Assembly: GCA_021802545.1 (NCBI GenBank)
Contig: JAJZRS010000006.1
Location: 9,308-73,307, forward strand
Reading direction: 5' to 3'
Source of the DNA: Pseudomonadota bacterium
GTDB taxonomy: Bacteria > Pseudomonadota > Gammaproteobacteria > Burkholderiales > JABEVD01
DNA: 64,000 bases
The notes under the pieces: generated by a model
The model's input: only the letters and a program-made list of their open reading frames with translations
Told to the model about the DNA's origin: nothing
Database searches by the model: none
Translations under genes and position numbers: made by a program
Shown: in pieces, positions 5,257 to 61,268 of the stretch
Numbering within the stretch: position 1 is the stretch's first letter
How the letters are laid out: every line of letters begins with the position of its first letter

Positions 5257-6717
5257 TCAGGTCGATATTTCCGGGTGCTTTTCCCTGACGAGATTGTCGA
5301 TCAGGTCCATAACCTCGTTGCTCGCGGATTCCGCACCCTGCATGGCCGAAATGATCTTGTCGTGCATTGAGGTTTTCGTCTTCCACTCGCCTTCCATGGC
5401 ATCCAGCATGCCGCGCACGCAGCCATGCACCCTGCGGTGCGGCTCGAGCAGCTTCCCGTAGGAGGGGAGTTTTCCGAATTTCTGCTTGCCTTCGCCTTCG
5501 TTGTACCATTTTCCCAGGCGGCAGTTGTCGTGGTCGACGCTGACCGCCCGCAGGCTTTCATCGTCGGCATGGTCGATCACGACATAGGCGCGCTGCTTGT
5601 AGACCACGTGGTCGACCTTGACCAGGGACGCGAAACTCAGATCCTGGACGTAGTTCGCGTTCGTCATGGTCTGGGTGGCCGATGCATAGAAGCTGTTGAA
5701 TCCGGACTCCATCTGCCCGATGACGGACTGAGAGGCATCCGCGCTCTCCTTCATTTCCTCCGAATCGGTCAGCATGGAGGCTGCGTCTTTCTGCAGGGTC
5801 AGCATGATCTCGCCTATCGATTCGGAAGCATGCTTGGTGTTTTCGGCAAGCTTCCTCACTTCGTCGGCGACGACGGCGAATCCTCGGCCGGCTTCGCCGG
5901 CCCTGGCCGCTTCGATCGCTGCATTCAATGCGAGCAGGTTGGTCTGGTCGGCGATCGAATTGATCAGCTCGACAGCCTGGCTGATTTCTATGCTTCTCGC
6001 GTTGAGCCTCTCGATCGTGTCGCTCGCCCTGTGGATGCGCTCTGCGATGCCGTTGAGGCGCTCGACAGCTTCCTTCACCAGTTCCTTGCCCGTGTCGGCA
6101 TCGGCGCTGGTCTTGCTTGCAAGCTCCGTGACTTCTTCCATCTTGTTGGTGATGACCTTGAGGTCGTCCTGGCTCGAGGCGAGATTGCGCAGCAGATTGG
6201 AGGTGTTGAGATGGTGGGCGCGCGAGACGAGGCTGGACATCATGGCGTCTCTTTTCTGTTCGGCCATCCCGTCGAGCAGGACGTTCTGGTTCTCGAGCCC
6301 CTTCCTGAAGTCGCCGTGCAGGCCGACAGGCATGGTATGGCGGTAGAATTTCCCTTCCAGGTTGCTCCTGAAGGTGGTTTCCTGCTCCCTGAAGAAGGCG
6401 CCGAGCTGGTCGAGCATGTCGTTCAGGTCCCAGCATAGGCGCCCGATCTCGTTCTTGTCTGACACGCCGGTGATGCGGCTGTTGAAGCGCCCCTGGGCAA
6501 CCTCAGAGATCAGATTGTCCAGCTTGGGCAGGGGATCGAGCCAGCGCCTCACCATGATTCCGCCCGCCGCCGCCGCGATGGCAGTGACCAGGGGGAAGGC
6601 GATCAATATCGGGCTGAAGGCGTGAAAGGCGTAGGCGATGGGAAGTACCGGAAGGGTGAGGGCAGGGGCCGCCCAGAGCAGTCGAACGATGTTAGAGCGT
6701 ATGGATGAATTCGTCAT
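5257..6717 (-). CDS. Methyl-accepting chemotaxis protein: membrane hairpin-HAMP-MA domain-C-terminal CZB zinc-binding domain
   Basis: It has the highly conserved MA hairpin [38 protein letters not shown]. The N-terminal hydrophobic hairpin has no periplasmic domain. The C-terminal [10 protein letters not shown]...HRRVHGC is CZB-like. Confidence 0.9.
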
Positions 6718-7210
6718 AGCTCATTCCTTTTTGCGAAAGAATATCGAGGAGAAGCTTCGTGGAAGCGGCGATGGCGTCCTTTGCGCCTGCGCGCTGCTCT
6801 TCTTCGAGCATGATGCGGTAGACATCGCCCATGGTCTTGACGACGGCAGGATCGGGCTTCCTTCTCACCGAAAAGTAGCCGGTGATGTTGCCCTGATGGT
6901 CGAGCATGGGGGTGACATTGGCGAACACCCAGTAGAAGCTGCCGTCCTTTGCCAGGTTCTTGACGTATGCGCTGCATTCGTCGCCCGAGCTGATGACATC
7001 CCAAAGCAGCTTGAAAACGGCGCGCGGCATGTCGGGATGGCGGATGATGTTGTGCTGCGTGCCGAGCAGCTCTTCCTCGCTGTAGCCCGAGAATTCGATG
7101 AAAATTCGGTTCCCGTATGTGATCCTGCCTTTCAAGTCGGTCATCGAAACGATGAAATCGTTTTCGCGCATGACCTTCTCGACCCCCGTCGGTGATATCT
7201 TGTTCTTCAT
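6692..7210 (-). CDS. Stand-alone Aer-type PAS (FAD-type) sensor protein
   Basis: The segment [65 protein letters not shown] closely resembles the Aer PAS domain. It overlaps the MCP start by 26 nt. The start was set at ATG 7210. Confidence 0.85.
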
Positions 7211-7295
7211 GACCCCTCTTCCTGGAGTTGAATTCGGCATTTTTGCCTACTACAAGGATACCCTATTTTCGTCTAAAGAGTTAATATCATTATCT

Positions 7296-9388: not shown

Positions 9389-9524
9389 GAATGCTCCTGC
9401 TGCAAGACACGCAGCACTTTATCAAAAAATGCGCATCGCGTCGCCTGCGTCACGCTTAATAAAAAGGTAATACTGTACCTATAGAATGTGTCCAAAGCTC
9501 TCATACGCGCGCAAAGGAATACAC

Positions 9525-11381
9525 ATGAGCGACAGCCAGTCCGAGACGGAATGCGCAACTCTCAGCCTACAGGATATTCCCGTCATGAAGATCCTTTTCG
9601 AAAACGACATGCCGCAAGGCGGCGAGCTGGACCGCCTGGTCAAGTTCGACCTGCTCGACGAGATCATCGATAAGTGCGCGCTTTCCGCCGTATTCCAGCC
9701 CATCATCGACATGAAAACGGGCCTTGTCATGGGATACGAGGGGCTGATTCGGGGGCCATCCGACAGCCCGCTGCATGCGCCCATTGCGCTGTTGAGGACG
9801 GCCGAGTCCTGCGGCAGGCTTTTCGAGCTCGAGCGCCTTTGCAGGAAAGTGACCCTCGAGAGCTTCGTGAGGCAGAAGCTCAACGGACAGCTTTTCCTCA
9901 ACATCAGCCCGGAATGCCTGATGGAGCCGCTTTTCAAGGACGGCGAGACGCTCAGGCTGGTCAAGGAGCTTGGCATCAACCCCGACAGAATCATCATCGA
10001 ACTCACCGAAGCGCATCCGACCTACGACTACTGCCTGCTGAGGGATGCGGTCAACCATTACCGCGAGATGGGGTTCAGGGTGGCGATCGACGATTTGGGC
10101 GAGGGATTCTCGAATCTCAGGCTCTGGTCGGAGTTGCGGCCCGATTTCGTCAAGATCGACATGCATTTCATCCAGGGCATCAACCAGGACGCAGTGAAGC
10201 ACCAGTTCGTCAGATCGATCCAGCAGATTGCAGAGAAAACCGAAACGAGCGTCATCGCCGAAGGCATCGAGACCATGGCCGAGCTTGCCGTGATCAAGAA
10301 TCTCAATATTGCGCTCGGACAGGGCTACCTGATCGGCAGGCCGAACGCCAATCCGGTGATCGTGGCTACTCCCGAAATTTCGAGGGCCCTGACCAAATCC
10401 TCGGGCTTGAGGGGGCCGCTCAACAACAGCGCGACGGCGAAAAAAATTCTCAAGAAAGTGTCTCCCGTCACGCCGACCACGCGCAATCAGGACGTCTTCC
10501 AGATATTCACTGAAAACCCCGATCTTTATTCGCTCCCTGTCGTCGACAACATGATTCCCGTCGGGCTCCTGAAGCGGCATCATGTCATCGAGAATTTCGC
10601 GAAGCCGTTCGTGCACGAGCTTTTCGGCAAAAAGTTTTGTGCGACGATGATGGATCCTTCTCCCATGGTCATCGATCAGAACATGGGGTTGCACGATCTC
10701 AGCAACCTGATCGTCTCCTCGGGAAGGCACCATCTCCTGGACGGCTTCGTCATCACAGACCAGGGAAAATATGTCGGCATGGGAAGCGCGCACGACCTGA
10801 TGCGCGAAATCACCGAAATCCAGATCAACATCGCAAGATATGCGAATCCTTTGACCCAGCTGCCGGGGAATGTGCCGATCAACGAGCACATTGACATGCT
10901 GCTCGCTTCTGAAGTGCCGTTCTGCGCCTGCTATTGCGATCTGGACAATTTCAAGCCTTTCAACGACGTCTACGGCTACAGGCGCGGAGACGACATGATC
11001 CAGTTTTGCGGCGAGGTGCTGTCGGACATGTGCGATTTCGAGCGGGATTTCATCGGGCATATCGGCGGCGACGACTTCATCATCCTTTTCCAGAGCCAGG
11101 ACTGGCAAAAGAGATGCAGCGACGCGCTGGTCAATTTCGACGCCATGCGCATCCGCTTCTTCTCCGACGAGCACAGAAGGGATAAGGGATTCACCACGCA
11201 GGACAGGAGAGGCGAAAGGGAGTTCGTGCCGCTTACCAGCCTCTCGATCGGCGCTGTGCCGGTTCTGCCCGGCATGTACCACACACACCATGAAATCGCA
11301 GAGGCGGCCGCCGTGGCCAAGAAGCACGCGAAGAAAACATCGGGAAGCAGCCTCTTCGTCGAGAGGCGCAGAGCGTCCTAG
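9525..11381 (+). CDS. EAL - CBS pair - degenerate GGDEF (GGDDF) signalling protein
   Basis: EAL-domain motifs are FQPI..(E)GLIRG, ELTE, DDLGEGFSNL, KID and EGIE..QGYL.GRP. The middle is CBS-like. The C-terminus is YCDLDNFKPFND.YGY.RGD..I...IGHIGGDDFIILF. The start is ATG 9525 (MSDSQ). Confidence 0.85.
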   Translation: MSDSQSETECATLSLQDIPVMKILFENDMPQGGELDRLVKFDLLDEIIDKCALSAVFQPIIDMKTGLVMGYEGLIRGPSDSPLHAPIALLRTAESCGRLFELERLCRKVTLESFVRQKLNGQLFLNISPECLMEPLFKDGETLRLVKELGINPDRIIIELTEAHPTYDYCLLRDAVNHYREMGFRVAIDDLGEGFSNLRLWSELRPDFVKIDMHFIQGINQDAVKHQFVRSIQQIAEKTETSVIAEGIETMAELAVIKNLNIALGQGYLIGRPNANPVIVATPEISRALTKSSGLRGPLNNSATAKKILKKVSPVTPTTRNQDVFQIFTENPDLYSLPVVDNMIPVGLLKRHHVIENFAKPFVHELFGKKFCATMMDPSPMVIDQNMGLHDLSNLIVSSGRHHLLDGFVITDQGKYVGMGSAHDLMREITEIQINIARYANPLTQLPGNVPINEHIDMLLASEVPFCACYCDLDNFKPFNDVYGYRRGDDMIQFCGEVLSDMCDFERDFIGHIGGDDFIILFQSQDWQKRCSDALVNFDAMRIRFFSDEHRRDKGFTTQDRRGEREFVPLTSLSIGAVPVLPGMYHTHHEIAEAAAVAKKHAKKTSGSSLFVERRRAS

Positions 11382-12542
11382 TTACCAATCCTCTTTGGAA
11401 TCAGTCTCGAAGAAGTCCAGGTGCTCGGCGAGCGCAGGCTTGAGGGACTCGCGTTCGAGCGGCTGTTCGAATGGCGCTTCCATTTTCTTCCTGAAATACA
11501 GGAATGCGCCTGCGCCGATGCCGAGCAGGGCGAGGGCTGCCGCAAGCCAGATCCAGGGGAATGAACTGTCTGCTTTTTCGGCCTTTGCATTGGCGAGCAT
11601 CCTGTCCGCAATCGCGACCTTTCTTCTCAGGTCTGAAAGATTCGCTTCCAGCGTTTTGATCTGCGACTGGAGCTGAAGCAGCTGGACCGTCTGGCTGTCT
11701 GCCTTGGCCACCAGCTGCTCTTCGGTGCGGCTCATATCCACGGCAGCTTTCGGCCCAGGCGCCGCTTCCTGTTTCGGCGCTTCCGACACGATGGCGAGCC
11801 GGAAGGCCGGCTTTTCGACTTTTGGCTTGACTTCAGGAGGCTTGACCTCGGGCGCCTTCGGCTGAGGCGCATGGGCCTTGGCCGCCACCTTTGCTTCGGG
11901 CGCTTTCGGGCCGATGTAGGGAATGCGCAGCTTCGATCCGGCCTCGAGGTGGTTGGGAGAGAGCTCCGGGTTTTCCCTCAGCACGGAAGCGACGAAACGC
12001 CTTTGCGCCATGGTGCTGTAGGGATAGAAATCGTGAGCGATGCCGGACAAGGTATCGTTCTGCCTGACCGTGAGCAGCGTGCCTTCGAATTTCCTGGGCT
12101 GGACGACTTTTTCGGCAGGCTTCGCTTCGATGCGCCTGATCGGGTTGGCGGCAACGGGCGAAACAGGCGCGCTGACAGGATCGAGAAAGGCGGTGAACGC
12201 CTTCTCTACGGTGACGCTGCTGCATCGCAGCTTGAGCTTGAGCGAGACGATGGGTTCGTTGATTCTCTGCGCCGTCGAGATCTTGACGATGCGCGGGCCA
12301 GCCGTGCCGAGCACGTCGAGGCGCGCCGTCTTGATCTGGAACAGTCCGTCGCTGGAAGGAGATGGATCGAGCGCGACGCACGCGGCATCGATCGATTCGC
12401 CATTCGAAGGATTGATGGCGATCATGGCCCTGAACGGCTCGCCGAGATGGGAATCAACCTGCATTTCGCCGATTTCCATCGCGCAGGCGCAGCCTGAGTA
12501 GGCGAGGAGGAAGACGAGCGCTTTCAGTTTTGCCTGACGCAT
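11382..12542 (-). CDS. FimV/HubP-family N-terminal-domain protein (mini-FimV) with LysM-like motif, coiled coil and C-terminal TM anchor
   Basis: It has a signal-like N-terminus and the FimV N-domain IGEMQVDSHLGEPFRAMIAI. A LysM-like block follows (TVRQNDTLSGIA....ENPEL.PNHLEAGSKLRIP). The rest is a P/K/A-rich spacer, a coiled coil and the TM segment WIWLAAALALLGIGAGAFLYF. Confidence 0.75.
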   Translation of the reverse strand: MRQAKLKALVFLLAYSGCACAMEIGEMQVDSHLGEPFRAMIAINPSNGESIDAACVALDPSPSSDGLFQIKTARLDVLGTAGPRIVKISTAQRINEPIVSLKLKLRCSSVTVEKAFTAFLDPVSAPVSPVAANPIRRIEAKPAEKVVQPRKFEGTLLTVRQNDTLSGIAHDFYPYSTMAQRRFVASVLRENPELSPNHLEAGSKLRIPYIGPKAPEAKVAAKAHAPQPKAPEVKPPEVKPKVEKPAFRLAIVSEAPKQEAAPGPKAAVDMSRTEEQLVAKADSQTVQLLQLQSQIKTLEANLSDLRRKVAIADRMLANAKAEKADSSFPWIWLAAALALLGIGAGAFLYFRKKMEAPFEQPLERESLKPALAEHLDFFETDSKEDW

Positions 12543-12586
12543 GGATGCATGAGCGGGTAAGTTGTGTTTAAGTCGGACGCTGCGCC

Positions 12587-14215
12587 TCAGATCTTGAATC
12601 TCGATACCGATTCCTGGAGCTTGACGGCAAGCAGTTCCAGCTGATGGAGCGCCTGGGAAGTCTCGCCAATCGAGGTGGAATTCTCCTTCGCAAAGCCCGC
12701 GATCCTTTCGACGCTTTGCGCGATCTCGTGGCTCGCAGTGCTTTGCTCCTGCGTCGCGCTGACCATGGAACGGATCTTCTCGAGCGTGTTGAGCGCCCCT
12801 TCATTGATCTTGGCGAGCGATTCGGACGCTTCGTTCGTGAGCGAGACGCCCGTGGAAACTTCCCGGCTGCTCGTGTCCATGATGGAGACGGCATGCTCGA
12901 TTTCCTTGCAGAATTCCTCGATCATGCTGGCGATGTCGGTCGTCGCATTGCCTGTCCGCTCCGCGAGTTTCCTGACTTCGTCGGCCACGACGGCAAATCC
13001 TCTGCCCTGTTCGCCCGCCCTGGCCGCTTCGATGGCGGCGTTGAGCGCAAGCAGATTGGTTTGATCGGCGATTTCCTTGATGACCATGACGATCTTGCCG
13101 ATTTCGTTGGAACGGTGCTCGAGCGAGGAAATGAGCTGAGCCGATTCCTTGACGTAACCTGCGACCTTCGTCAGTTCTTCGGCCGCGTTGGTGGCGACCT
13201 TCTGCCCCGCCTTGGACAGCTCCCGCGCGGTATTGGCGATCTCTTCCGTGTCAGTTGCGCTCTGCGCGACTTCCCTGATCTTCGTGCTGATGCCTTCGAC
13301 GCTCATCGAAGTGGACATGGCAGCGGAACTCTGCTGATTGGAGCTTTCCGAAATCCTGGAAGCGGAGCTTGCAAGCTGGGTGGCCGATTGGGAGACATCG
13401 TCCGCATAGTCATGGACCTGCCGCACGATTTTCTGGAAGTTTTCGGCGAGCGCATTGAAGGCCTTCGCTGCCTGGCCGATCTCGTCATTGCTTTCGACCT
13501 CGACGCGCTGGGTGAGGTCGCTGTCCTGCTGCATGCGCATCATGACGGCCTGGAGGTTCTTTGCAGGCTTGATGATCGTGCGGATGAACCAGCCGATGAC
13601 GAAGAAAAGCAGCACCTGGAGGGCAAGCTGGCCGATCCAGAGTCCCATGTTCACCCGCTTGAGTCCCGCATAATCTTCGGACAGATCGAGCACGATGCTC
13701 GCTGCGCCGTTCGAGCTGCCGACTTTGACATGGTGGCACATCAGGCAGTTCGTTCCCCTGAAGTTGGTGCTTTCGATGAACGGGATCACCGCCCTCAAGG
13801 CGGGTTTTCCGTCAGGAAGCGTCGCCCGCTGGAAAATAGGTTTTTCGGAGGCGAGCGCCTGTCTGTCGATGTCGTCCCTGGCCTGCTCTTCGGGCAGACC
13901 CGGCCCGAACTGGTCGGATACCTGCTTGGCGCGGATGATCCTGAGTTCGGCAACGCCGTCGGAGTCGCCCATTTTCCTGACCATCAGCTTGCGATTGGCA
14001 GGATCGGAGATCATTCCGGTCACCATGAGCATGTTCATGCCGTTGAGCAGGCCGTCAGAGGATATCTGGGCGCGATGCTCGGCCTCCTTGAGCATCCTCT
14101 TCTCGAAATGGTCCATCGTCCATCGCTGAGATACCGCAAGCACGATGATCAAGAAGCCCTGTATCAGAATTTGCAGCTTGGCCTGGATACTCAGAGAGTT
14201 CCAAATTTTTTTCAT
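12587..14215 (-). CDS. Methyl-accepting chemotaxis protein with periplasmic DUF3365/Tll0287-like c-type-heme sensor domain
   Basis: A CLMCH heme-binding motif (nt 13733-13747) lies between TM1 and TM2. This is followed by HAMP and then the MA hairpin [37 protein letters not shown]. Confidence 0.88.
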
Positions 14216-14233: not shown

Positions 14234-16075
14234 TTATACTGGCTCAGCCACCCTTTTCGACTGCGTGAAAAGCGTGGACTTCGTCGCCGATTCCCCGGTA
14301 AGCAATTCTTCCATGTCGAGGATGAGGACGATTGAGCCGTCGCCTGAAAGGGTTGCGCCTGCAACGCCTTTCGGCTTGATCCCCTTGAGGGGCTTGATGA
14401 CAACATCTTCCCTGCCGACGAAATTGTTCACGGCCAGGATGAAGGATTTTCCGCCCGATTTCATGAGCACCCCGTAGACCGGCGGGGCATCCTGAGGCCA
14501 GTCGATCATTTCGGCAAGCGCCCTGATCGGGAGCACTTCGTCCCGCACGACCATGGTGGCGCGTCCCGATACCGATTGAACCTGTGCCGGATTGATCGGG
14601 ATGATTTCCCTGACCATGGCGAGCGGAACGGCAAATGACTGTTCGCTGACCTGTACGATCAGGACGGGAAGTATGGCGAGCGTGAGCGGCAGGTAGATCG
14701 AGAAAGTGGATCCCTTGCCCGGCATGGACGAGATTTCTATCCTGCCGTTGAGCTTCTGGATATTGGTCTTGACGACATCCATTCCGACGCCACGTCCGGA
14801 GACGTTGGAGATCTGATCCTTGGTCGAAAATCCTGGCATGAAGATGAGGCCGAGGCTCTGCTGCTCGTCCATGCTGTTGATCGCTTCCTCGTCGGCGATG
14901 CCTTTTTCGAGCGCCTTGCGCCTCAGCGCGGCTGCATTCATCCCGCGGCCGTCGTCCGAGATCTCGATGACGATATGGTCTCCGGCCTGAACAGCCGAGA
15001 GCTTGACGATGCATTTTTCAGGTTTTCCTGCGAGAACCCGCTCCTCGGGGGTTTCGATGCCGTGATCGACGGCATTCCTGATGAGATGCACCAGCGGATC
15101 GGAGAGCTCCTCGATCATGGTCTTGTCGAGTTCGGTTTCCTCGCCGGAAATTTCGAGTTCCATTTCCTTGCCGAGCTGCCTTGCCAGATCGCGCGCCATT
15201 CTCGGGTATTTCTGGAACAGGCGGCCGACAGGCTGCATCCTGGTCTTCATGACCGCATTTTGCAATACGCCGACAAGCAGATCGAGTTCGTTGACGGCTT
15301 CGTCCAGGTCCCTCAGAGTCTGCTGATCATTCTTGCCCTGAAGTATGTTGTTTCTGAGGCAGTTCAGGCGGTTCTTCGTCAGCCCGATCTCGCCCGACAA
15401 GTTGAGCACCTGGTCGAGCCTGGCCGTGTCGATCCTGATCGTGGTTTCCTTCTCGGCGGCGCCCTTGTCCGAATCGCGCCGCGGTGCCTTGGGCGCTTCC
15501 GCTTCGCGCCTTGGGGGCTTGGGCGCCTCAACCCGAGGCTCGGCCGGTTTTGAAGGCTGGGAGACGGCAGGCACGCCGCTGACGCCCTGGTAGAGCGCTG
15601 CCCAGTCTGGTCCTCCGGAAGCGGGAGCTGCTGCAGGCGCTGGCGTTTCAACCTTCGGGGCGGCAGAAGAGGCAGGTGGGGCTTCACCCTTGACGATGGC
15701 CGAGAGCGTGGCGAGCAGCGCAGGATCGGCCGGCTCGGGCTGGGAAAAACGGGAGAGCGAGCTGAACATGTCGCGCACGATGCCGGTGGCCGCGAAAATC
15801 GCGTCCATGATGGCCGGCGTCATCGCCAGTTCGCCGTTCCTCAGCTTGTCGAACAGGTTCTCGGTGAGATGGCAGAGCTTCACCATTTCATTGGCATTGA
15901 GGAAACCCGCGCCACCCTTGATGGTGTGGAAATTCCTGAAGATGTCGTTGAGCAGCTTCTTGTCGCTCGGATCCCTTTCAAGGTCGACGAGCTTGTTGTC
16001 GACATCGGACAACAGATCGCCAGCTTCTTGCAGAAAATCCTGCAGCATTTCCTCGTTGCCAGCAAAGTCGTTCAT
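14234..16075 (-). CDS. cheA: Chemotaxis histidine kinase CheA (no recognisable P2 domain)
   Basis: Domains seen are Hpt P1 (FRNFHTIKGGAGF), P3 (TIRIDTARLD.V.NL.GE), HATPase N/G boxes (HLIRNAVDHGIE, DDGRGM, GFSTK, SGRGVGMDVV) and a CheW-like P5. Residues ~115-215 form an Ala/Pro-rich linker. Confidence 0.95.
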   Translation of the reverse strand: MNDFAGNEEMLQDFLQEAGDLLSDVDNKLVDLERDPSDKKLLNDIFRNFHTIKGGAGFLNANEMVKLCHLTENLFDKLRNGELAMTPAIMDAIFAATGIVRDMFSSLSRFSQPEPADPALLATLSAIVKGEAPPASSAAPKVETPAPAAAPASGGPDWAALYQGVSGVPAVSQPSKPAEPRVEAPKPPRREAEAPKAPRRDSDKGAAEKETTIRIDTARLDQVLNLSGEIGLTKNRLNCLRNNILQGKNDQQTLRDLDEAVNELDLLVGVLQNAVMKTRMQPVGRLFQKYPRMARDLARQLGKEMELEISGEETELDKTMIEELSDPLVHLIRNAVDHGIETPEERVLAGKPEKCIVKLSAVQAGDHIVIEISDDGRGMNAAALRRKALEKGIADEEAINSMDEQQSLGLIFMPGFSTKDQISNVSGRGVGMDVVKTNIQKLNGRIEISSMPGKGSTFSIYLPLTLAILPVLIVQVSEQSFAVPLAMVREIIPINPAQVQSVSGRATMVVRDEVLPIRALAEMIDWPQDAPPVYGVLMKSGGKSFILAVNNFVGREDVVIKPLKGIKPKGVAGATLSGDGSIVLILDMEELLTGESATKSTLFTQSKRVAEPV

Positions 16076-16085: not shown

Positions 16086-16889
16086 TCAGAAGCCCAGGCT
16101 TTCCAGAAGTTCGTCCACCTGCGCCTGGTTGGTCACGACATCGACTCTTCCATCCGCCTTGATCACAGGGCCGTTCATCAGTCCATCAGGAACATCTTCC
16201 TTTTTGGGCATGTTTTCGATCAACAATCCGATGAGCTGCGATTCTACAGACCTGACGATGTCCACCACCTTCTTGATGACCTGTCCTGTCAGATCCTGGA
16301 AATCCTGGGCCATCATGATTTCCGTCAGCTGGGCATTGGTGGCCTTCACCTGGCCGGGCACATCGCCGAGATAATCGCGGGTCTTCACAGCCAGCGACTT
16401 GAATTCCTCGACGGAAAGCTTGTTGTCGAACGCCTTCTGCCATTCTTCGGAAAGCGCACTGGCGCGATCGCCTATTTTTTCCTGGAGGGGCCTTGCGAGC
16501 TCGATGGAATTCAGCACGCGTTCGGCTGCCTGCTGGGTCAGATTGGCGATGTAGGCGAGCCTGTCGTTCGCATCCGGTACCGAATTGACGACCTTCTCGA
16601 TGGATTTGTCATAACCGAGTTCGCGTAGCGCATTGTAGAGCGTGCGCGTGAGCTGCCCGACCTGCGCGAAAACAGGCGCGGTGTCCTCGCCGCTTTTCTG
16701 CACGGCGGCCATTTCCTGGTGCTGCTGTGAGACGGAGTCGAACAGCGCTTCCAGATCAGCCGAATCCTGCTCTGCCGGCTTCTCTTCCTCAGGTGCGGGT
16801 TGGACTTGTGGAGTAGAAGCTTCCGCGTTTCCGGCCTGTACGATCGAATCGAACAGCGCTTCCAGGTCTTCGGAGTCTTCCATTGTCAA
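16086..16889 (-). CDS. cheZ: CheY-P phosphatase CheZ
   Basis: It has the catalytic block [16 protein letters not shown] and the C-terminal CheY-binding peptide [17 protein letters not shown] 4-nt overlap with the cheY stop is present. Confidence 0.92.
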
Positions 16890-17275
16890 ATCCCCATCGT
16901 CTTGAAAATCTTGTTCAATTTCTCGTCCAGAACTGCAGCCGTGAAAGGCTTGACGATATAGCCATTCGCGCCTGATTGGGCCGCCTCGATGATGTTTTCC
17001 TTCTTGGCTTCAGCGGTCACCATCAAAACTGGAAGGTGCTTGAGCGTGGGTTCCTTCCTGATCGACCTCAAAAGCTCGATGCCGCTCATGTTGGGCATGT
17101 TCCAGTCGGATACGACGAACTCGAATCCGCCGCCTTGCAGTTTTTTCAGGGCATCCAGCCCGTCCTCGGCTTCGGTCACGTTGGGAAAGCCAAGTTCTTT
17201 CAGAAGATTGCGGATGATTCTGCGCATCGTCGAAAAATCGTCGACCACCAGAATTTTCAGATCGGCCTTCGCCAT
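16886..17275 (-). CDS. cheY: Chemotaxis response regulator CheY
   Basis: It is a 129-aa single REC domain, [12 protein letters not shown]...[12 protein letters not shown]...R......[15 protein letters not shown]...GA.GY.VKPFT. Confidence 0.95.
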
Positions 17276-17349: not shown

Positions 17350-18282
17350 TTATCTTTCCAGATACTGCCGCATCGTTTCGGCCAGGACCGCAGGATTGAA
17401 TTTCGCGACATAGTCGTCCACGCCGACCGTTTTTCCCATCGCCCTGTTCGCTTCAGAAGAAAGCGAAGAGTGCATGATGACCGGAATGCCCGAAAAGCGC
17501 TGGTCCGATTTGATGTTGCGGGTCAGGACATAGCCGTCCATTTCGGGCATCTCGGCATCGACCAAAATCAGCCTGAGCCTGTCGTGCAGCGGCCCTTCCT
17601 TTTCGAGCGCTGCGAGGCCCTGGAGCTTGTCCCAGGCCTCCCTGCCGTTGTTTGCCTGATAGTATTTGACGCCAAGCTTGTCGAGCACCTGGGTGATCTC
17701 CTTGCGGGCGACCATGGAGTCGTCCGCGAAAAAGATCGTTGCTTCGCCGTCCGTCTGCACAGGCGTCACGCTGGGAATGTCCGGCTCGCCGAATGCCTGC
17801 ACGAGGATCTGCTCGACGTCGAGAACCGAAACGAGCCTGCCGTCTTCGAGTTCGGTGACCGAAGTGATGAGGCCTTCGTTTCCCGTCAGCATGGTTTCGG
17901 GAGACTTCATTTTTTCCCAGTCGACGCGGATGATCCGGTCGACGCTTTCCACCAGAAAGCCCTGCGTCTGGCGGCTGTACTCGGTCACCATCATGGTTTC
18001 TCCGACGCCCCGCCTGTCGATATTGAGAAAACTGGCCAGGTTGAGGACAGGGATGATGTTGCCCCTGAGCGAGATGATCCCGACCACGCCCGTGTGCATG
18101 TTGGGCGTTTTGGTGATCGGCGGGGTTTTCGTCACTTCCCTGATCTTGAACACGTTGATGCCGAAGATTTCGTTCGTGCCGAGCGAGAACAGCAGGATTT
18201 CCATCTTGTTCGACCCTGCCAGGGTGGTGCGCGCGTCGATGCTCGCCAGAAGTGTGGTGTCTTGATTGTTGCCGAATTCCAT
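17350..18282 (-). CDS. cheV: CheV (CheW-like domain + receiver domain), copy 2
   Basis: The N-terminal CheW-like domain is LFSLG..EIFGINVFK.REV. The C-terminal REC is FFADDS...R.......D.EMPEMDGY.LT..IK. Confidence 0.9.
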   Translation of the reverse strand: MEFGNNQDTTLLASIDARTTLAGSNKMEILLFSLGTNEIFGINVFKIREVTKTPPITKTPNMHTGVVGIISLRGNIIPVLNLASFLNIDRRGVGETMMVTEYSRQTQGFLVESVDRIIRVDWEKMKSPETMLTGNEGLITSVTELEDGRLVSVLDVEQILVQAFGEPDIPSVTPVQTDGEATIFFADDSMVARKEITQVLDKLGVKYYQANNGREAWDKLQGLAALEKEGPLHDRLRLILVDAEMPEMDGYVLTRNIKSDQRFSGIPVIMHSSLSSEANRAMGKTVGVDDYVAKFNPAVLAETMRQYLER

Positions 18283-18292: not shown

Positions 18293-19231
18293 CTACGCGA
18301 GCCTGCGCTTCAAGGCGGCTGCAAGCTTGTGGGGCTCGAATTTGGATACGTATTCGTCCACGCCGACAGATTGTCCAAGCTGCTGGTTCGATGTGCCGGA
18401 TAGGGAGGAGTGCATGATGACGGGGATGCCGGCGAAGCGGTGATCGCTCTTGATCATCTTGGTCAGGAGATAGCCGTCCATTTCAGGCATTTCGACGTCG
18501 GTGAGGACCAGCTGGATGAGATCCTTCACCTGCGTGTGGGTTGCTTCGGCGCGGTTCGCGAGATTTTGCAATTCGTCCCAGGCTTGCTTGCCGTTCACGG
18601 CGCTCATGTACTCGACCCCCATCGCCTTGAGGGTGGACTCGATCTGATGCCTGGCCACCGAGGAATCATCCGCGAAAAAGATCGTGCGCTTGGAATTCAA
18701 CGGTTCGATGCCCACGAAAAGGTGGCTGTCGTCGAACCGGCTGGTTTCGGAGAGGATCTTTTCGACGTCGAGCAGCATGACGAGGCGGCCGTCATCGAGT
18801 TCGGTCACGGCAGTGACGAGGCCGCCCATTCTTGCCGTCAGCATTTCCGGCGGAACGCGCATGGCCGACCAGTCGAGCCTGAGGATGATGTCGACCCCTT
18901 CGACCAGAAACCCCTGGGTATGGCCGTTGTATTCGGTGACGATCAGGATTTCTGGCTTTTTTTCCGTCTGGATGCCTGCGTATTTGGCGATGTCGACGAC
19001 CGGGACGAGGACGCCTCTCAGGCTCACCATGCCCTCGACGGCCTCAGGCATGTCCGGAGCGCGGGTGATTGCGGGAGCGCGCATCACTTCCCGAACCTTG
19101 AACACGTTGATGCCGAAGCATTCGTTTCTCCCGCTTCTGAGATCCGTTCCCAGGGAAAACAGCAGAATCTCAAGCTTGTTCGTGCCCGCAAGTTTTGTGC
19201 GCGCATCGATATTTTTCAGTAGTTCGGACAT
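18293..19231 (-). CDS. cheV: CheV (CheW-like domain + receiver domain), copy 1
   Basis: It has the same architecture as the neighbouring cheV and is clearly paralogous (LEILLFSLG..FGINVFKVREV..; FFADDSSVAR..TDVEMPEMDGYLLT). Confidence 0.9.
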   Translation of the reverse strand: MSELLKNIDARTKLAGTNKLEILLFSLGTDLRSGRNECFGINVFKVREVMRAPAITRAPDMPEAVEGMVSLRGVLVPVVDIAKYAGIQTEKKPEILIVTEYNGHTQGFLVEGVDIILRLDWSAMRVPPEMLTARMGGLVTAVTELDDGRLVMLLDVEKILSETSRFDDSHLFVGIEPLNSKRTIFFADDSSVARHQIESTLKAMGVEYMSAVNGKQAWDELQNLANRAEATHTQVKDLIQLVLTDVEMPEMDGYLLTKMIKSDHRFAGIPVIMHSSLSGTSNQQLGQSVGVDEYVSKFEPHKLAAALKRRLA

Positions 19232-19293: not shown

Positions 19294-19461
19294 TCAGCAT
19301 TGCTGTAAAGCATACATTTTGCGAAGAAAAGCGTCTACATCGGCGTCATTAAAATCCATCGGTTTTTCATGCGGCTTTTCATGCGAGACGCGATCCGGAG
19401 GAAGTTCTTCGCACTCTTCAATCTGCCATTCCAGCGATTCCATGCACATCATTTTGACCAT
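19294..19461 (-). CDS. Small acidic protein (55 aa), unannotated first ORF of the che operon
   Basis: Hand translation gives MVKMMCMESLEWQIEECEELPPDRVSHEKPHEKPMDFNDADVDAFLRKMYALQQC followed by a stop. GGGAGG lies 5 nt upstream of the ATG. It sits between the candidate sigma28 promoter and cheV and is below the 60-aa cutoff of the ORF track. Confidence 0.45.
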   Translation of the reverse strand: MVKMMCMESLEWQIEECEELPPDRVSHEKPHEKPMDFNDADVDAFLRKMYALQQC

Positions 19462-29587: not shown

Positions 29588-32500
29588 ATGACCGACATCC
29601 GTGAAGCGCTGCAAGAATCGTCGGACAGCGAGGCGATCTTCCGGACCGTCATCGAATCCACTCCCTTTCCCATTGCACTCAAAGACAAGGAAGGGCGAAT
29701 CGTCTATCTCAATAGCGCCTTCATCAGGACGATAGGTTACACGCTTCTAGACATTCCCGATTTGGCGACTTTTCATATGCTCGCCTATCCGGATAGCGCC
29801 TATCGGCAGAAGGTGACCGAGGATTGGCAGAAGAATCTGGATGCGGCCATCGGAACAGGAGCCCCCTCCGCTCCGACGGAAGCCGACATCGTCTGCAAAG
29901 ACGGCCGGGTCAGGACATTCGACGTGAGCACAGCTTTTCTCGGCAATCATTTCGAAGGCGCGTATCTTATCGCTCTGTACGACGTCACGGAAAGAAGGCG
30001 GCTCGAAGAAGGGATACGTTTTCAGCAATTCGGGCTCGACCATGCGGGGGAGGAGATCCTCTGGATTGGATGCGACGGCCGCATTCTGGAAGCGAACGAA
30101 ACGGCCTGCCTGAAGCTCGGTTATACGAAGGAGGAGCTGTGCGCGCTGACTGTCGGTGACATCGATCCCCAGTTTCCCTTCGAGCAAGCATGGGGCGCGC
30201 ACTGGCAGCAGCTCAAGCAAAGCAAAGTGCTGCGCCTCGAATCCCAGCAGCAGCGCAAGGACGGGAAGATTTTTCCGATCGAGGTGGTGGCCAACTATTT
30301 CGAGTACGGCGGGAGCGAATACAATTGCGCGCTGGTGCGCGACATATCCGACCTCAAGATTTCGGAGGAAAGAAACCGCGTCCTCGTGGAGATGGCGCCA
30401 GAGGCGATCACCGTGCTCGATGTGGATATGAACCGCTTCGTCGATGCCAATGCCAATGCAGAGCGCCTTTACGGCTGCAGCAAGGAAGAATTGCTGAAGC
30501 ATTCCCCGTTCGACTTCTATCCCCCCGATCAGCCCGATGGCCGCTCCATACAGGAATCCATCGATGCTCACAAGGCGCTTGCGCTTGCCGGAGAGGAGGT
30601 GGTGTTCGAGCGCATCGTGAGAAATTGCCAGGGCAGGCTCGTTCCGTGCGAGGTACGCCTCGTCAAGCTGCCTTCGATAGAGCGCAGGCTGATCCGCGCC
30701 AGCATCATCGATATCACGGGCAGGAAGAATGCGGAAGCCAGAATCGAACGCCTCAGCAAGCTTTACAAGGCGCTCAGCGAAATCAACCAGGCCATCGTGC
30801 GCATGGACGAGGAGGCGGAGCTTTTTCCGCTGGTGTGCAGGATGGCGGTGGATTTCGGCGGCGTGAAAATGGCCTGGATAGGCCAGCTTGGCGCAGAGAA
30901 CAGGATCTTGCCCAGCGTGCGTTACGGCAGCGGCATCGAGTACCTGGAAGGCATCGTCATTTCCTCGGACGAGAGCGTGCCCGAAGGGCGCGGGCCGACC
31001 GCCATCGCTTTCAGGGAGAACCGCGGTGTCGTGGTCAACGATTTTGCGTCGAGCGGCATGACCCAGCCCTGGAAAGCGCGGGCCGAGCGCTTCGGACTCA
31101 TGGCGAGCGCGACTTTCCCGATTCCAAAAGGCGGCAAGCCTTTTGCCGTGCTGACCGTCTACCATGACAGCCGAAATGCATTCGACGCCGAAATGATCGA
31201 TCTGCTCGACGAGATGGCGAGGGACATATCCTTTGCGCTGGACAGTTTCGACAGGGAGCGCGAAAGGGCGCTGTCGAAGGAAGAGCTGGCGGCCAGCGAG
31301 CGCCATTTCAGGGCCTATTTCGAACGCGCCATGGTGGGCATGGCTGCGACGAGCACGGAGAAGGGGTGGATCGAAGTCAACGATGCGCTGTGCAACATGC
31401 TCGGCTATTCCAGGCAGGAGCTGGCCGGCATGACTTGGGCGGAGCTCACGCACAAGGATGATCTGGCCGAAAACGAGTCGCTCTTCAACCGGATATTGCG
31501 CAATGAGATAGACGGGTACGTGTTCGACAAGCGATTCATACGCAAGGACGGCTCGCTGCTCTACGTGCACATTGCGATCAGGGCGGTGAGGAAGGCCGAC
31601 GGATCCCTCGACTACACCGTGGCGATCGTCGAGGACGTCAGCAGGAGAAAGCATGCCGAGGGCAGGGAGAGGCTGAGAAACCGGGCGCTCGAATTGCTTG
31701 CAAAGGGGACGCCGCTCGACGAGATCATGGAATTCGTGGTGAAGGGCGTCGAGGATGAAAATCCTTCCATGATCTGCACCATTTTGCTTCTGGACAAGGA
31801 AGGGAAGCATCTTCTGAAGGGGGCGGCTCCCAGCCTGCCCGCATTTTACAGCGAAGCCATCCATGGGGCCGAGATCGGGCCGGAAGCAGGCTCTTGCGGC
31901 ACGGCCGCCTATCTCGCGCGGCGGGTCGTCGTCGAGGATATCGCCACGCATCCCTATTGGAAAAACTACCGCGAGCTCGCAGCGCGGGCGAACGTCGCCT
32001 CATGCTGGTCGGAGCCGATTTTCGGTTCGTCCGGAAAGGTGCTCGGCACCTTCGCCGTGTACAGAAAGACGCCGAGCGCACCCGGGGAAAACGATCTTGC
32101 GCTCATCGAAAGCATGGCCAGCCTCATCGGCATCGCCATCGAGCGCAAGCGCATCGAGGACGAACTGCAGCTTGCCTCCATGGTATACAACCATACGGGC
32201 GAGGCAACCATGGTCACGGACGAGCAGAACAGCATCATCGCAGTCAATCCGGCATTCACGCACATCACGGGCTACAGCCAGGACGAGGTGCTGGGAAAGA
32301 ATCCGAAAATACTGAGTTCGGGCAAGCATGACAGCGATTTCTACAAGGTCATGTGGGAAGAAATCAGGACTTCGGGAATGTGGCAGGGCGAAATATGGAA
32401 CAGGAAGAAGAACGGCGAAATCTATCCCGAATGGCTGACCATCAATACAATCCATGATCGGGAAGGTCAGCTGCATCGCCATGTCGCGTTCTTTTCCGAC

Positions 32501-33832
32501 ATCACCGACAAGGTGAGAAGCGATGAGCTGATCTGGCGCCAGGCCAACTTCGATCTGCTCACAAGCCTGCCCAACAGGCGGATGTTCTACGACAGGCTCG
32601 AACAGGAGATCAAGAAATCGAACAGGAGCGGATTGCCGCTCGCGCTGCTCTTCATCGACCTCGATCGCTTCAAGGAAGTCAACGATACGCTCGGCCACCA
32701 GAAGGGAGACATCCTGCTCGTCGAGGCGGCGCGCCGCATCGTTGCCTGCGTGCGCGAATCGGACACGGTTTCGCGCCTGGGAGGAGACGAATTCACCGTC
32801 ATTCTGTCCGAGCTTGCCGACACGGACCATGTCGAGACGATCGCCCAGCACATCATTTCGAGTCTCGTCGAGCCTTTCGTTCTCGAAAGCGAAATCGCCT
32901 ACGTTTCGGCAAGCATAGGCATCACCTTCTATCCGAACGATGCTCGCGACGTCGAGCAGCTTCTGCGGAATGCCGATCAGGCCATGTATGTTGCGAAGGA
33001 TACGGGGCGGAACCGGTTCTCCTATTTCACCCGAACGCTGCAGGAGAAAGCGCAGTCGAGAGTGAGAATGCTCAACGACCTGCGCGGCGCGCTGGGCTCG
33101 AACCAGTTCGAGCTCCATTTCCAGCCCATCGTCGATCTTTCCACCGGATTGGCCAGAAAGGCCGAGGCGCTGCTGCGCTGGCGCCATCCCGACAGGGGAA
33201 TGGTCAGCCCGCTGGAATTCATATCCCTTGCCGAGGAAACAGGGCTGATCATCGACATCGGGGATTGGGTTTTCAGGGAAGCTGCCCGCTGGGCGGGCCG
33301 CTGGACAGCGCTTTGCGGCGGCAATTTCCAGATCAGCGTGAACGAATCGCCGGTGCAGTTCCAGAACGAATCGAAAAACATCGACGCCTGGCTGGACCAC
33401 CTGGAAGCGCTCGGCATTTCAGGGCAGAACATCGTCATCGAGATCACGGAGGGGCTGCTGCTCAATGCCGATTCCGGCGTCACCGACAAGCTGATCCATT
33501 TCAGGGATGCGGGAATAGGCGTGGCTATCGACGATTTCGGCACGGGGTATTCCGCCTTGTCATATCTCAAGAAATTCGACATCGATTTTCTGAAGATCGA
33601 CCAGTCCTTCATCCGCGATCTTTCGACCGATCCGAGCGACATGGCGCTGGCGGAGGCGATCATCGTCATGGCGCACAAGCTCGATCTGAAGGTCATTGCA
33701 GAGGGGGTCGAGACGAGCGAACAGCAGCGCCTGCTGCAGATGGCGGGATGCGACTTCGCCCAGGGTTATCTTTTTTCGAAGCCGCTTCCCCCCGATGAAT
33801 TCGAGGCATTTCTGGAGGCTTGGGTCCCATGA
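29588..33832 (+). CDS. Multi-PAS / GAF / GAF / PAS - GGDEF - EAL signalling protein (1414 aa)
   Basis: It has several PAS S-box repeats, two GAF-like blocks, intact GGDEF ([10 protein letters not shown]) and intact EAL ([32 protein letters not shown]). Confidence 0.92.
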
Positions 33833-41422: not shown

Positions 41423-43126
41423 CTACCAGGGCGGGCCGGAAGAAAACCCGAGCGTCTCGATCGCGTCCACGTAAAGCAGGAAGAAATTCACCAGGATCGA
41501 GACGGCGGCCGTGAGCTTCCACGCAGCCAGCCTGTTCCTGCTTGCCAGCGGGGTTTTTCTTGGCGGAGAAATTCTCGCGTCCTCGCCGCGCTCGAGTTCG
41601 AGCAGGAGTTCCTCGGGCATTTCGAAACGCCTGGCAGGATCTTGCGCAACCGACTTCATCAGGATGTTCTCGAACCATGCGGGAATGTCGGGCCGGTATT
41701 TCGTCGGCAGGACGGGATCGGCAAACGAAGGAAATTTTCCGTCTGCTATTTCTCCGTACGGATATTGCTCCGTCAGAAGAAAATAGAGTGTGACGCCCAG
41801 CGCATAGAGATCGCTCTGGATTCCTGCTTCTTCCCCGGCAAAGAGTTCCGGCGCCCTGTAGTTCGGGCTGCCTGAAAATTGAATGTTTTCCATCGCAGGT
41901 GAAGAAGCCGATCCAAGATCCAGGATGCGCACTTTCCCGTCCTTGCCGAGATGCAGGTTCTCCGGTCTGATGTCGCGGTGAACGATGTCGAGGCGATGGA
42001 TCGCCCCCAAACCCTTCGCGATCTTCATGCCGATCTGGGCCACCTCGTTCACGCTGAAGTGATGCCTATCCTCGATCATGGAGGCCAAGGTCTTGCCTTC
42101 GTGCCAAGTCGACAGGATATAGAGAAAATGGCGATTTTCGGGCGTGACATACTGGGGAAGATTGCTCGACACCGCTCTCTTGCCGAGCCATTCCTCCATC
42201 ATGAGGTTGTTTCTCGCCTGATCGTCCAGGACGAATTCAGGACTCAGCGTCCTGAGCACCAGGACGCGCTCGCCGGATGCTTCCTTCACCTTGTAGGCGA
42301 GCTTCTTTCCCGCTGCGTGAAGCACGTCGAGCACTTCGTAATTGTCCACTTTCTGCCCCTTGACGAGCATGGGCGGCAGGGGAAGGCAAGACCCTTCGAG
42401 CAGCATGTCCCGCAGGTTGCCTTCGGCCACTTCCTCGATTCTCAATACCTGGGCGGTGATGTTGCCTTCGCTCCCCGCTTTCAGGGCTTCATCGATCATG
42501 ATTTGTGCGGCTTCTTCCGGATCGGTATGCTTCATCAGCAGGTCCTGCATCCTTTTTTGCCCGAGCGCTTCCCATGCACCGTCGGATGCGAGCAGGAAGA
42601 TGTCCCCTGGATTCAGCTCGCCTTCCGAATAATCGACGACGAGATGGAGATCCAGTCCTACGGCGCGCTTCAGCACGTGCTTCCCTGCGTCTTCCCTGAC
42701 ATGGTCGCGCGTGAGGAGCTGGAGCTCGTTTCCTCTCAGCCTGTAGATTCTCGTGTCGCCGACATGAGCGATGGCATAGCGGTTGCCGCGCAAGACGAGC
42801 AGGCTGAGCGTGCTCGCCATGCTCGCGAATTCCCGATGGGCGGCGCCCTGGGCGAGCAGCCATCTGTTGGCCGAGGCGAGCAGTTTGCCGAGGGCATGCG
42901 GGATGTCCCAGGTCTCGGGCGTGTCGTAATAGTCGCTCAGCACGCTGAGCACGGCATATTCCGCAGCCTCTCTCCCGCCGGCGTTGCCTATGCCGTCAGC
43001 GACAGCGGCAACGATTCCCTTGCTGGCAAGAAGCTCTCCTTCAGGCGCGACGAGTCCGAAGAAATCCTCGTTTTTTTCCTTTACTCCGGCATCGCTGACT
43101 GCGCCGAATGCAATTCTCAGCGGCAT
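41423..43126 (-). CDS. Bifunctional PP2C phosphatase / Ser-Thr protein kinase with C-terminal TM anchor
   Basis: The N-terminus is PP2C (SD.G..KE.NED.F, VADG.G, LASDG). The Hanks kinase core follows (VHRDIRPENL, DLGSA, APE). A C-terminal hydrophobic helix is present. RBS AAGGGGAAAA precedes ATG 43126. Confidence 0.85.
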   Translation of the reverse strand: MPLRIAFGAVSDAGVKEKNEDFFGLVAPEGELLASKGIVAAVADGIGNAGGREAAEYAVLSVLSDYYDTPETWDIPHALGKLLASANRWLLAQGAAHREFASMASTLSLLVLRGNRYAIAHVGDTRIYRLRGNELQLLTRDHVREDAGKHVLKRAVGLDLHLVVDYSEGELNPGDIFLLASDGAWEALGQKRMQDLLMKHTDPEEAAQIMIDEALKAGSEGNITAQVLRIEEVAEGNLRDMLLEGSCLPLPPMLVKGQKVDNYEVLDVLHAAGKKLAYKVKEASGERVLVLRTLSPEFVLDDQARNNLMMEEWLGKRAVSSNLPQYVTPENRHFLYILSTWHEGKTLASMIEDRHHFSVNEVAQIGMKIAKGLGAIHRLDIVHRDIRPENLHLGKDGKVRILDLGSASSPAMENIQFSGSPNYRAPELFAGEEAGIQSDLYALGVTLYFLLTEQYPYGEIADGKFPSFADPVLPTKYRPDIPAWFENILMKSVAQDPARRFEMPEELLLELERGEDARISPPRKTPLASRNRLAAWKLTAAVSILVNFFLLYVDAIETLGFSSGPPW

Positions 43127-43364
43127 GATTTTCCCCTTGTCGAAAATGGCGAACTTTCTGTTCAGATTCGACAAAGCAACTAGCATGCCAAAAAATAACG
43201 ATTGATTATAAAAAGAATTTTATACGCGGGCAGGAAATTGTGCACCGAAAGGGTGCAAAATCAGATCGGCATTCATGCCGTTGAACCGGCAGCCTCCTGG
43301 AGACGCTATCGCCATTGTTGCTTTATTGTGTCAAACTGACCCTAAAAATCTATAAGGAGGGGAC

Positions 43365-49390: not shown

Positions 49391-49434
49391 CAACTGACGC
49401 GCCAATCGCATACCGTTAAAAAAGAGGGGAATGA

Positions 49435-52215: not shown

Positions 52216-52364
52216 GGTTGGCGATTAAACGGCCGGCATCCGAATCGTGCAACCGGCGCTTGCGCGCAACATCCCGTTCCAAGACGGCCGGAAGATTCGC
52301 TGCAATTTACAGCGCTGCAATCGCTGGGGTACGATGAATCCATTTGCAATTTGGAAAATTTCAC

Positions 52365-55292: not shown

Positions 55293-55724
55293 TATCAGTC
55301 GATCCAGTATTTATGCGGGTTTGAGGCCAACCGTGGCTCCGTGAAATCTAAATGCCCCTTTGTTTTTCAACCCTTTGTTGACTGTGCGGAGCGGCTGAAA
55401 TGTGTCCAATTCCGCTGTTCGCTTCGCCATGGGTTAACCGGCAGCTATCAGAATCGAGCCGACACACAATATGCCAACTCATTGGCAATGCCTCGGTCAA
55501 AGCATCCGGTCGCGGATTATTGCCAACCTTTTCAAGCCAGGCAATTGATAGGGGATATCGCACTAGCTCAAAAGTGGCTCTACCCGTACCTAGGCAAAAG
55601 AATGGTGATGACACCATCAAATAGCATTCCTACAGTTTCACAATTTGATGATCTCCTGTAGAGTCTGAAAGACGTTATTTCAACAAGCTCGAAACTGCCC
55701 ATCAAATTGGAGCGTTTGCCGCTA

Positions 55725-58616: not shown

Positions 58617-58716
58617 ACCAATGAAAACATCTGTTTTCTGATCTCAACTGTCAATTGCAATGTAGTTGGGGATCCTCTAACTGCTTTTCACGAGTTGCGG
58701 ATCGGGGTGAAACGAA

Positions 58717-61261: not shown

Positions 61262-61268
61262 GCGTATA

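Follow-up and report, generated by a model that had tools for sequence, protein, structure and literature searches.

FimV-type polar landmarks and the mini-FimV gene

FimV and HubP, which serve as landmarks of the cell pole, have an established role in placing chemotaxis arrays (PMC12918733; bioRxiv 10.1101/2025.10.27.684771). In Pseudomonas putida, FimV is required for placement of the chemotaxis system; it binds peptidoglycan via LysM, and both LysM and the Ig-like domain are needed for its polar placement (PMC12918733). Deletion of its C-terminal TPR 'FimV domain' leaves spreading intact, and the authors assign array placement to the periplasmic/acidic part (PMC12918733). FimV recruits ParC, then ParP and CheA, and AlphaFold 3 models place short segments of the disordered cytoplasmic part of FimV against ParC and also against ParP, at its CheW-like domain (bioRxiv 10.1101/2025.10.27.684771). 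In P. aeruginosa, a periplasmic FimV(1–507) fragment is functional in trans with a cytoplasmic fragment. Here we analysed a short FimV-like protein of 386 amino acids (aa), designated mini-FimV, whose gene is the last of a chemotaxis (che) operon on contig JAJZRS010000006.1 of a Burkholderiales bacterium (assembly GCA_021802545.1). The sequence examined comprised 64 kb of this contig (the window) and the fetched flanks of related loci. An initial annotation of the window, drawing on FimV/HubP proteins as polar organisers and on HubP as a help in positioning arrays in Vibrio, had suggested that the protein is a dedicated anchoring or positioning factor for the array of this operon. Full-text searches of the literature turned up no report of a che operon that contains a FimV-like gene.

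A signal peptide, an Ig-like domain (FimV_N/GLB), a LysM-like module and a transmembrane (TM) helix, with the N-terminus outside and the C-terminus inside, are common to the Pseudomonas FimV proteins (PaFimV, 919 aa; PpFimV, 911 aa) and, by prediction, to mini-FimV. The periplasmic part and the TM helix occupy residues 25–387 and 388–408 in PpFimV, and residues 22–327 and 328–350 in mini-FimV. Unlike Pseudomonas FimV, mini-FimV is devoid of the acidic cytoplasmic region of roughly 500 aa and of the TPR 'FimV domain' and ends in a 36-aa tail; its gene belongs to a che operon, whereas the surroundings of the Pseudomonas genes are of the housekeeping or pilus kind. HubP of Vibrio and Shewanella is likewise a LysM-anchored single-pass protein (the module is LysM-like, and anchoring is predicted, in mini-FimV). 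It is a polar landmark implicated in array placement at the flagellated pole via ParC/ParP (PMC12918733; see also PMC8789113). HubP, however, has no Ig-like domain and carries a very long acidic-repeat cytoplasmic region together with the FimV domain. In contrast to the ParC/ParP route of HubP, neither a ParC (ParA-like ATPase) nor a ParP (CheW-like adaptor) gene was found in the mini-FimV operon. These two cytoplasmic proteins are unrelated to mini-FimV, although the outcome proposed for it is the same, polar retention of the flagellar chemotaxis array.

The closest full-length FimV-like protein, P0015, named 'pilus assembly protein FimV' in Burkholderiales-type metagenome-assembled genomes (MAGs), shares with mini-FimV the PF25800 domain, LysM, spacer, coiled coil and TM helix, but it also has a cytoplasmic part of about 300 residues with TPR-like and acidic LDF/LEF-type motifs. 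Its gene lies between a DUF4124 gene and rnfH-smpB, near pilS/pilR, and not in a che operon. Other short FimV families have the same truncated architecture as mini-FimV, to which they are 23–27% identical, but their tails are without the acidic LD[FY]FE motif.

Architecture and family of mini-FimV

The mini-FimV open reading frame (ORF) spans positions 11382–12542 of the window on the minus strand (386 aa and a stop codon, ATG start). A longer frame is impossible, as the reading frame is closed by a TAA upstream of its ATG. As the initial annotation had stated, the ORF begins 44 nt after the gene of a methyl-accepting chemotaxis protein (MCP) on the same strand. Its evolution is that of a real gene subject to purifying selection, with a ratio of non-synonymous to synonymous substitution rates (dN/dS) of 0.21–0.24 in unsaturated pairs. 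No second FimV-like ORF was found in the window. Only two hydropathy peaks were present, at residues 1–21 and 328–350, and the protein is predicted to be a bitopic inner-membrane protein with a periplasmic N-terminus and a cytoplasmic C-terminus. The first peak, centred on residue 15, belongs to a signal peptide (residues 1–21; 12480–12542, minus strand, as are all parts of the gene) with an AxA cleavage site (ACA before M) that is kept in the family alignment. A lipoprotein reading of the segment 'YSGC' was rejected, because the Cys is missing from half of the mini-FimV family.

The signal peptide is followed by a periplasmic Ig-like FimV_N domain (residues 23–122; 12177–12476). The profile search, in which the absence of a FimV-family hit would have refuted the proposal of the initial annotation, returned Pfam FimV_N (PF25800) at residues 23–122 (44.2 bits, cut-off 27; E = 2.2e-11). 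An AlphaFold2 (AF2) model contained an Ig-like beta-sandwich at residues 23–119, with a predicted local distance difference test (pLDDT) score of about 78–88. The cysteines C55 and C107 of this domain are invariant in alignments A1 (the mini-FimV family) and A2. The next module is LysM-like and putatively binds peptidoglycan (residues 157–208; 11919–12074). The Pfam LysM match scored 20.4 bits, 0.5 bit below the cut-off of 20.9 (E = 5e-4, residues 158–208), and relatives aligned in the same columns pass the cut-off with 24–41 bits. In the AF2 model, residues 156–206 fold into a beta-alpha-alpha-beta unit of the LysM type (pLDDT about 70–83), and this module is the best-conserved block within the family alignment. 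A search of PDB sequences with the A1 family profile, and not with the single protein, yielded nothing but a LysM match to Kbp, which was weak and fell short of significance (E = 0.22). The LysM-like motif of the initial annotation was thus confirmed by relatives and by fold, with its own score just under the threshold.

A flexible, low-complexity periplasmic spacer (residues 210–268; 11739–11915) contains 14 Ala, 12 Pro and 10 Lys among 59 residues, has a pLDDT below 50 and varies in length among family members. It leads into a periplasmic coiled coil (residues 270–323; 11574–11735), which is a single long helix in the AF2 model, has a clean a/d heptad register with L, I, V or M at 10 of the 16 a/d positions, and is kept in the full-length relatives. 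The single TM helix (residues 328–350; 11493–11561; AF2 helix 330–354) has RKK on its cytoplasmic side. By hydropathy and composition, the remaining residues 351–386 (11385–11492) form an acidic cytoplasmic tail of 36 aa with a net charge of −4, of which the earlier description, '~40-aa acidic', was a fair one. Composition, heptads and hydropathy likewise agree with the P/K/A-rich spacer, coiled coil and single TM helix that had been described there. No TPR or FimV C-terminal domain was found in mini-FimV with Pfam or NCBIfam, and the tail is too short for one. The NCBIfam model TIGR03505 (FimV_core) scored 14.2 bits, far under its cut-off of 43.45; the nearest full-length relatives also miss this cut-off (18.7–33 bits), so the model is insensitive for the whole clade. 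The AF2 model was built on the family alignment, and its full chain is of low confidence (pLDDT 59.5, predicted template modelling score 0.31), with the two domains and the helices usable. Foldseek comparison of the model with the PDB returned generic Ig folds only, none at E ≤ 1e-3.

Within the tail, the motif L-[AI]-[ED]-x-L-D-[FY]-F-[ED]-x-[DN]-[ST] (residues 371–382; 11397–11432) is conserved in the family (alignment A1) and often accompanied by a terminal W. For 114 full-length relatives, the cytoplasmic part was compared with shuffled sequences, and motifs of the class [LIVM][DE][FY] were 2.3-fold enriched in it (131 observed vs. 56 ± 6.8; z about 11). The narrower LD[FY] occurred there 39 times vs. 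11.4 ± 3.1 in shuffled sequences and was concentrated near the C-terminus. Exactly one motif of this class, LD[F/Y]FE, is retained by the mini-FimV tail.

The family is very small: a word-indexed search of 5.8 billion proteins recovered only 13 clusters of mini-FimV at 90% identity, all with PF25800 and all 386–417 aa in length. Protein length, stop position and tail motif are conserved in members down to 42% identity. In an exhaustive HMMER profile search of 1.84 billion representatives (50% identity), three family representatives scored at least 446 bits, after which scores dropped to 171 bits, where full-length FimV-like proteins (580–930 aa) begin. The latter align to profile positions of about 17–380, i.e., the periplasmic part and the TM helix. 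BLASTP aligned mini-FimV collinearly with P0015 (678 aa; residues 24–351 vs. 31–372, 32% identity, E = 9e-38), which continues past the aligned part with its cytoplasmic TPR-like and acidic segments. When mini-FimV, short FimV-like and full-length proteins were taken together, 114 of 172 had more than 150 residues after the predicted TM helix; mini-FimV has only 36. The protein is therefore very probably a truncated FimV-family module, corresponding to the periplasmic and TM half, and we file it as a truncated variant of the family and not as a FimV/HubP orthologue. In the NCBI and JGI pipelines, members already carry the name 'type IV pilus assembly protein FimV' and are assigned to Burkholderiales. 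The carriers form a narrow clade of Burkholderiales-type lineages, all of them uncultured and represented by MAGs; further carriers are GCA_027438635.1, GCA_027444725.1, JAJZRP01, JAKBJU01, JAJZQY01 and JAJZVB01. An exact-sequence look-up placed P0015 together with mini-FimVs in one metagenome sample (ERZ27237461) and in shared MAG studies, but the assemblies listed for them differ.

At least two other short FimV families, of about 400 aa, are 'periplasm-only' and end soon after the TM helix. One (P0039/P0047/P0162–P0167) has a conserved basic tail ending in RNS[STL]F, and the other (P0041/P0063/P0076) has tails of less than 10 aa. In a Sulfuricella MAG, the gene of a member of the former is solitary, flanked by an RNB-family ribonuclease gene and by mpl (loci L016–L018, gene at 10001–11221). 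Truncation of FimV to such modules is thus a theme that recurs and is undescribed.

The chemotaxis operon and related loci

The operon reads, on the minus strand, small ORF-cheV-cheV-cheY-cheZ-cheA-mcp-miniFimV. The first cheV (18293–19231) encodes CheW and Response_reg domains; the second (17350–18282) matches the CheW and receiver domain gene of 309–311 aa in the related loci L001 and L002. The genes cheY (16886–17275; NF007901, 222.9 bits), cheZ (16086–16889; NF008368, 287.8 bits) and cheA (14234–16075; Hpt, dimerisation, ATPase and CheW-like domains) follow. The MCP gene (12587–14215) encodes 542 aa with a periplasmic sensor, a HAMP domain and an MCP signalling domain. No cheW, cheR or cheB gene is present in the operon, which has two cheV genes. 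The gap of 44 nt between the MCP and mini-FimV genes (12543–12586) folds weakly (−4.1 kcal/mol). No sigma-70-like promoter or terminator-like match was found in it by scanning, and no sigma-28 or sigma-54 consensus was seen by eye. Scans of the gaps in the window and in loci L002 and L009 likewise gave nothing above shuffled expectation. The position of mini-FimV as last gene of the operon, claimed in the initial annotation, agrees with these results, and from the sequence mini-FimV would share a transcript with the che genes.

The head of the operon is a small acidic ORF of 55 aa (19294–19461), MVKMMCMESLEWQIEECEELPPDRVSHEKPHEKPMDFNDADVDAFLRKMYALQQC, with a good Shine-Dalgarno sequence and, just upstream, −10-like TATAAT/TATAGT boxes. 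ORFs of 51–59 aa occupy the same position in loci L001, L002 and L013. No Pfam family was assigned to it; its segment 'DVDAFL' may resemble CheY-binding peptides. The CheZ protein (16086–16889, minus strand; alignment A3) has a duplicated N-terminal acidic motif, (E)DLEALFDS. A pattern combining EDLEALFD with [ED]IMMAQD matched more than 540 metagenomic cheZ loci, and the EDLEALFD-type motif is a widespread N-terminal motif of CheZ in this group.

The sensor domain of the operon MCP comprises about 160 aa, is periplasmic and contains a single CxxCH motif (CLMCH). It matched no Pfam family and looks, from its sequence, like an uncharacterised c-type-heme module. In MAGs of the Gallionella/Gallionellaceae type, homologues of this sensor domain occur with PAS, histidine-kinase and GGDEF outputs attached; the search for this domain yielded mostly fragments with varied output domains and was used for context only.

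A gene for an EAL-CBS-GGDEF protein with a degenerate GGDDF motif (9486–11381, plus strand) is convergent with mini-FimV, and its stop codon directly abuts that of mini-FimV, an arrangement common to all related loci. Since this leaves no room for a terminator, the convergent transcripts must overlap.

The order cheV-cheV-cheY-cheZ-cheA-mcp-miniFimV with the convergent EAL-CBS-GGDEF gene was the same in all 10 or more independent contigs carrying family members (42–100% identity), and the genes past EAL-CBS-GGDEF vary between loci (MscS, an AI-2E transporter or hemerythrin). Seven related loci (L001, L002, L005, L006, L008, L009 and L013) were compared with the window. Identity to the window protein was 91–96% for CheY, 87–96% for CheV, 82–95% for CheA, 81–92% for the MCP and 68–91% for unrelated HAD hydrolases that are encoded upstream and are also syntenic. 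For mini-FimV it was 42–76%, which makes it the fastest-evolving gene of the block by far.

More distant operons were collected by scanning metagenome contigs with the CheZ alignment, which gave 80 sister loci (CheZ 45–63% identical, 680 kb in total), 21 of them with cheA and at least 2.5 kb downstream. The full cheV-cheV-cheY-cheZ-cheA order was present in at least 19 of these 21, and about half of the 21 run directly into flhB-flhA-flhF-flhG-fliA (Pfam-verified in L084 and L029). A second mcp-cheY-cheA cluster follows instead in L038, L053 and L055. Because sister operons continue straight into the flagellar genes, cheVVYZA is regarded as the core che operon of bacteria with polar flagella. 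At its 3' end, the heme-type MCP and mini-FimV form a clade-specific addition, replacing the flh junction of the sister lineages. One or two copies of a heme-type MCP gene, with sensor domains 43–58% identical, lie 5' of several sister cheVVYZA operons, and an EAL-CBS-GGDEF orthologue (58% identical) lies downstream of one of them (L062).

Further features of the window were as follows. A second MCP of 486 aa, of the cytoplasmic type with a C-terminal CZB zinc-binding domain and preceded by a PAS protein of 182 aa, is encoded at 5257–7240 (minus strand), and the pair of CZB-MCP and stand-alone PAS protein is conserved in L001. Three PAS/GAF-GGDEF-EAL proteins of 1414, 972 and 969 aa are encoded on the plus strand (29588–33832, 52344–55262 and 55707–58616), the last bearing an SBP_bac_3 domain at its N-terminus; if EAL-CBS-GGDEF is counted, the 64 kb contain four cyclic di-GMP (c-di-GMP) genes. 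A 587-aa protein encoded at 41423–43186 (minus strand) is a fusion of a PP2C phosphatase with a Ser/Thr protein kinase. At 47375–52134 (plus strand), a TPR-containing secretin of 671 aa, the only one in the window and 35 kb from mini-FimV, precedes a protein of 899 aa whose C-terminal part is a jacalin-like lectin domain. The GC content is 0.447 at 58–60 kb vs. about 0.58 elsewhere, and a tRNA gene (61349–61421, minus strand) adjoins; the region 58001–61421 may be an integrated element.

Possible role of mini-FimV in array placement

If mini-FimV were a truncated landmark that anchors or positions the chemotaxis array, it would be co-expressed with the che genes, and its LysM-like and Ig-like domains would fix it to the polar or septal cell wall, where it would retain or stabilise the chemoreceptor array. 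Contact with the array could be made with the receptor, in the periplasm or in the membrane; alternatively, the tail motif might bind a CheW-like domain (of CheV or CheA-P5) or another adaptor. In this way, mini-FimV would supplement or bypass the route from FimV/HubP through ParC and ParP to CheA. Speaking for this role are the architecture and the collinear homology with full-length FimV, the position on the same strand behind a 44-nt gap with no promoter or terminator match, the unchanged order of the block where the DNA past it differs, purifying selection, the tail motif with its enriched class, the flagellar setting of the sister operons and the published results on FimV given at the outset. 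Taken as a whole, we consider this explanation plausible at somewhat less than even chances, and positioning or anchoring of the array is only a tentative assignment of the protein's job. A more specific version is unlikely: mini-FimV would be a minimal periplasmic anchor independent of ParC/ParP, in which the wall-bound LysM-like and Ig-like domains with the coiled-coil stalk dock the heme-type MCP, and thereby the CheV/CheA lattice, to peptidoglycan at the pole. In this version, the LD[F/Y]FE tail motif would be, no less doubtfully, a stripped-down remnant of the client-binding region of FimV.

Several results weigh against an array-positioning role. All functional evidence for mini-FimV is positional. 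The mcp-fimV-like pairing, whose conservation the initial annotation had named as a check, was found in every relative, but these are all close relatives, and since the unrelated upstream HAD genes are also syntenic, the pairing has little independent weight. With the family profiles, which recovered the positive controls, no FimV-like ORF was detected in any of the 80 sister cheZ loci (680 kb), nor was a FimV-like gene present in any of the 21 with downstream sequence; the operon therefore works elsewhere without one. Homologues of the heme-type MCP and of EAL-CBS-GGDEF occur near sister operons, there without a FimV-like gene, and the other short FimV that could be placed on a long contig, that of the Sulfuricella MAG, is not linked to che genes. 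At the level of expression, no clear Shine-Dalgarno sequence precedes mini-FimV in the 44-nt gap. In more distant family members the gap is 49–91 nt, in one with a weak hairpin, which is no commoner than in shuffled sequence; an internal promoter or attenuator may thus lie ahead of mini-FimV in relatives. Finally, a hidden Markov model of the tail motif had no significant match in the full-length relatives, and only the coarser enrichment of the motif class holds. The initial proposal of a dedicated anchoring factor is accordingly a reasonable inference about function, which is not demonstrated by positional evidence among close relatives.

Among other explanations, the most serious is that mini-FimV, as a FimV-like protein that binds peptidoglycan, serves more generally, either as a landmark of the envelope or pole or as an accessory of type IV pili. 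It would perhaps be the periplasmic half of a functionally 'split' FimV, its location would be a clade-specific accident, and it would have no particular part in chemotaxis. The pilus-related names given by NCBI and JGI agree with this, as do the sister operons without a FimV-like gene and a synteny drawn from close relatives only. The other short FimVs and the closest full-length relatives are not che-linked either (P0015 is near pilS/pilR, P0127 elsewhere), and the periplasmic region of P. aeruginosa FimV has independent functions, such as secretin assembly, and acts in trans. However, mini-FimV is packed tightly at the 3' end of the operon behind a gap without a promoter or terminator match, stays with the che genes where the DNA beyond the EAL-GGDEF gene has been rearranged, and has no pilus genes within 10 kb, the sole secretin gene of the window being 35 kb distant. 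We consider a general landmark or pilus accessory somewhat unlikely. A decaying 5' remnant of a full-length fimV would explain why the protein stops shortly past the TM helix, where full-length relatives continue, but the abutting convergent gene leaves no possible FimV-coding remnant downstream. This pseudogene reading was rejected and retains hardly any probability: length, stop and tail motif are kept down to 42% identity, and together with the dN/dS of 0.21–0.24 this means that mini-FimV is not a fragment.

The two remaining explanations assign mini-FimV to one of its neighbours. As an accessory specific to the upstream MCP (a co-receptor, stabiliser or wall tether), its Ig-like domain would bind the CxxCH sensor. 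Both proteins have periplasmic domains and appear jointly as the 3' addition to the cheVVYZA core, and protein binding is a frequent function of Ig-like domains (discussed in PMC12918733). Yet the heme-type MCP homologues of sister lineages (sensor 43–58% identical) have no FimV-like neighbour, and the sensor domain is elsewhere fused to PAS, histidine-kinase and GGDEF outputs. Such a pairing is distinctly unlikely. Even less probable, by analogy with FimV and DgcP of P. aeruginosa, is that mini-FimV would hold the convergent EAL-CBS-GGDEF phosphodiesterase at the pole, by the array or motor. FimV binding by a diguanylate cyclase is documented (PMC7033161), the window is unusually rich in c-di-GMP genes, and EAL-CBS-GGDEF abuts mini-FimV stop-to-stop in every locus as the last gene of the conserved block. 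On the other hand, the genes are convergent and therefore on separate transcripts, an orthologue of the enzyme (58% identity) is found close to one of the sister che operons that have no FimV-like gene, and the contact with DgcP uses the cytoplasmic region of FimV, which is almost absent from mini-FimV.

Which part of the very large FimV/HubP proteins places chemotaxis arrays can be approached with mini-FimV, a natural periplasm-only case inside a che operon. If it acts as the minimal ParC/ParP-free anchor described above, the periplasmic half of FimV/HubP suffices to position a chemoreceptor array, the question left by the work on P. putida, in which deletion of the TPR hub spared spreading. 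If mini-FimV does not position the array, stand-alone FimV periplasmic modules have other envelope roles; if it does, it defines a minimal landmark together with a small, testable interaction motif.

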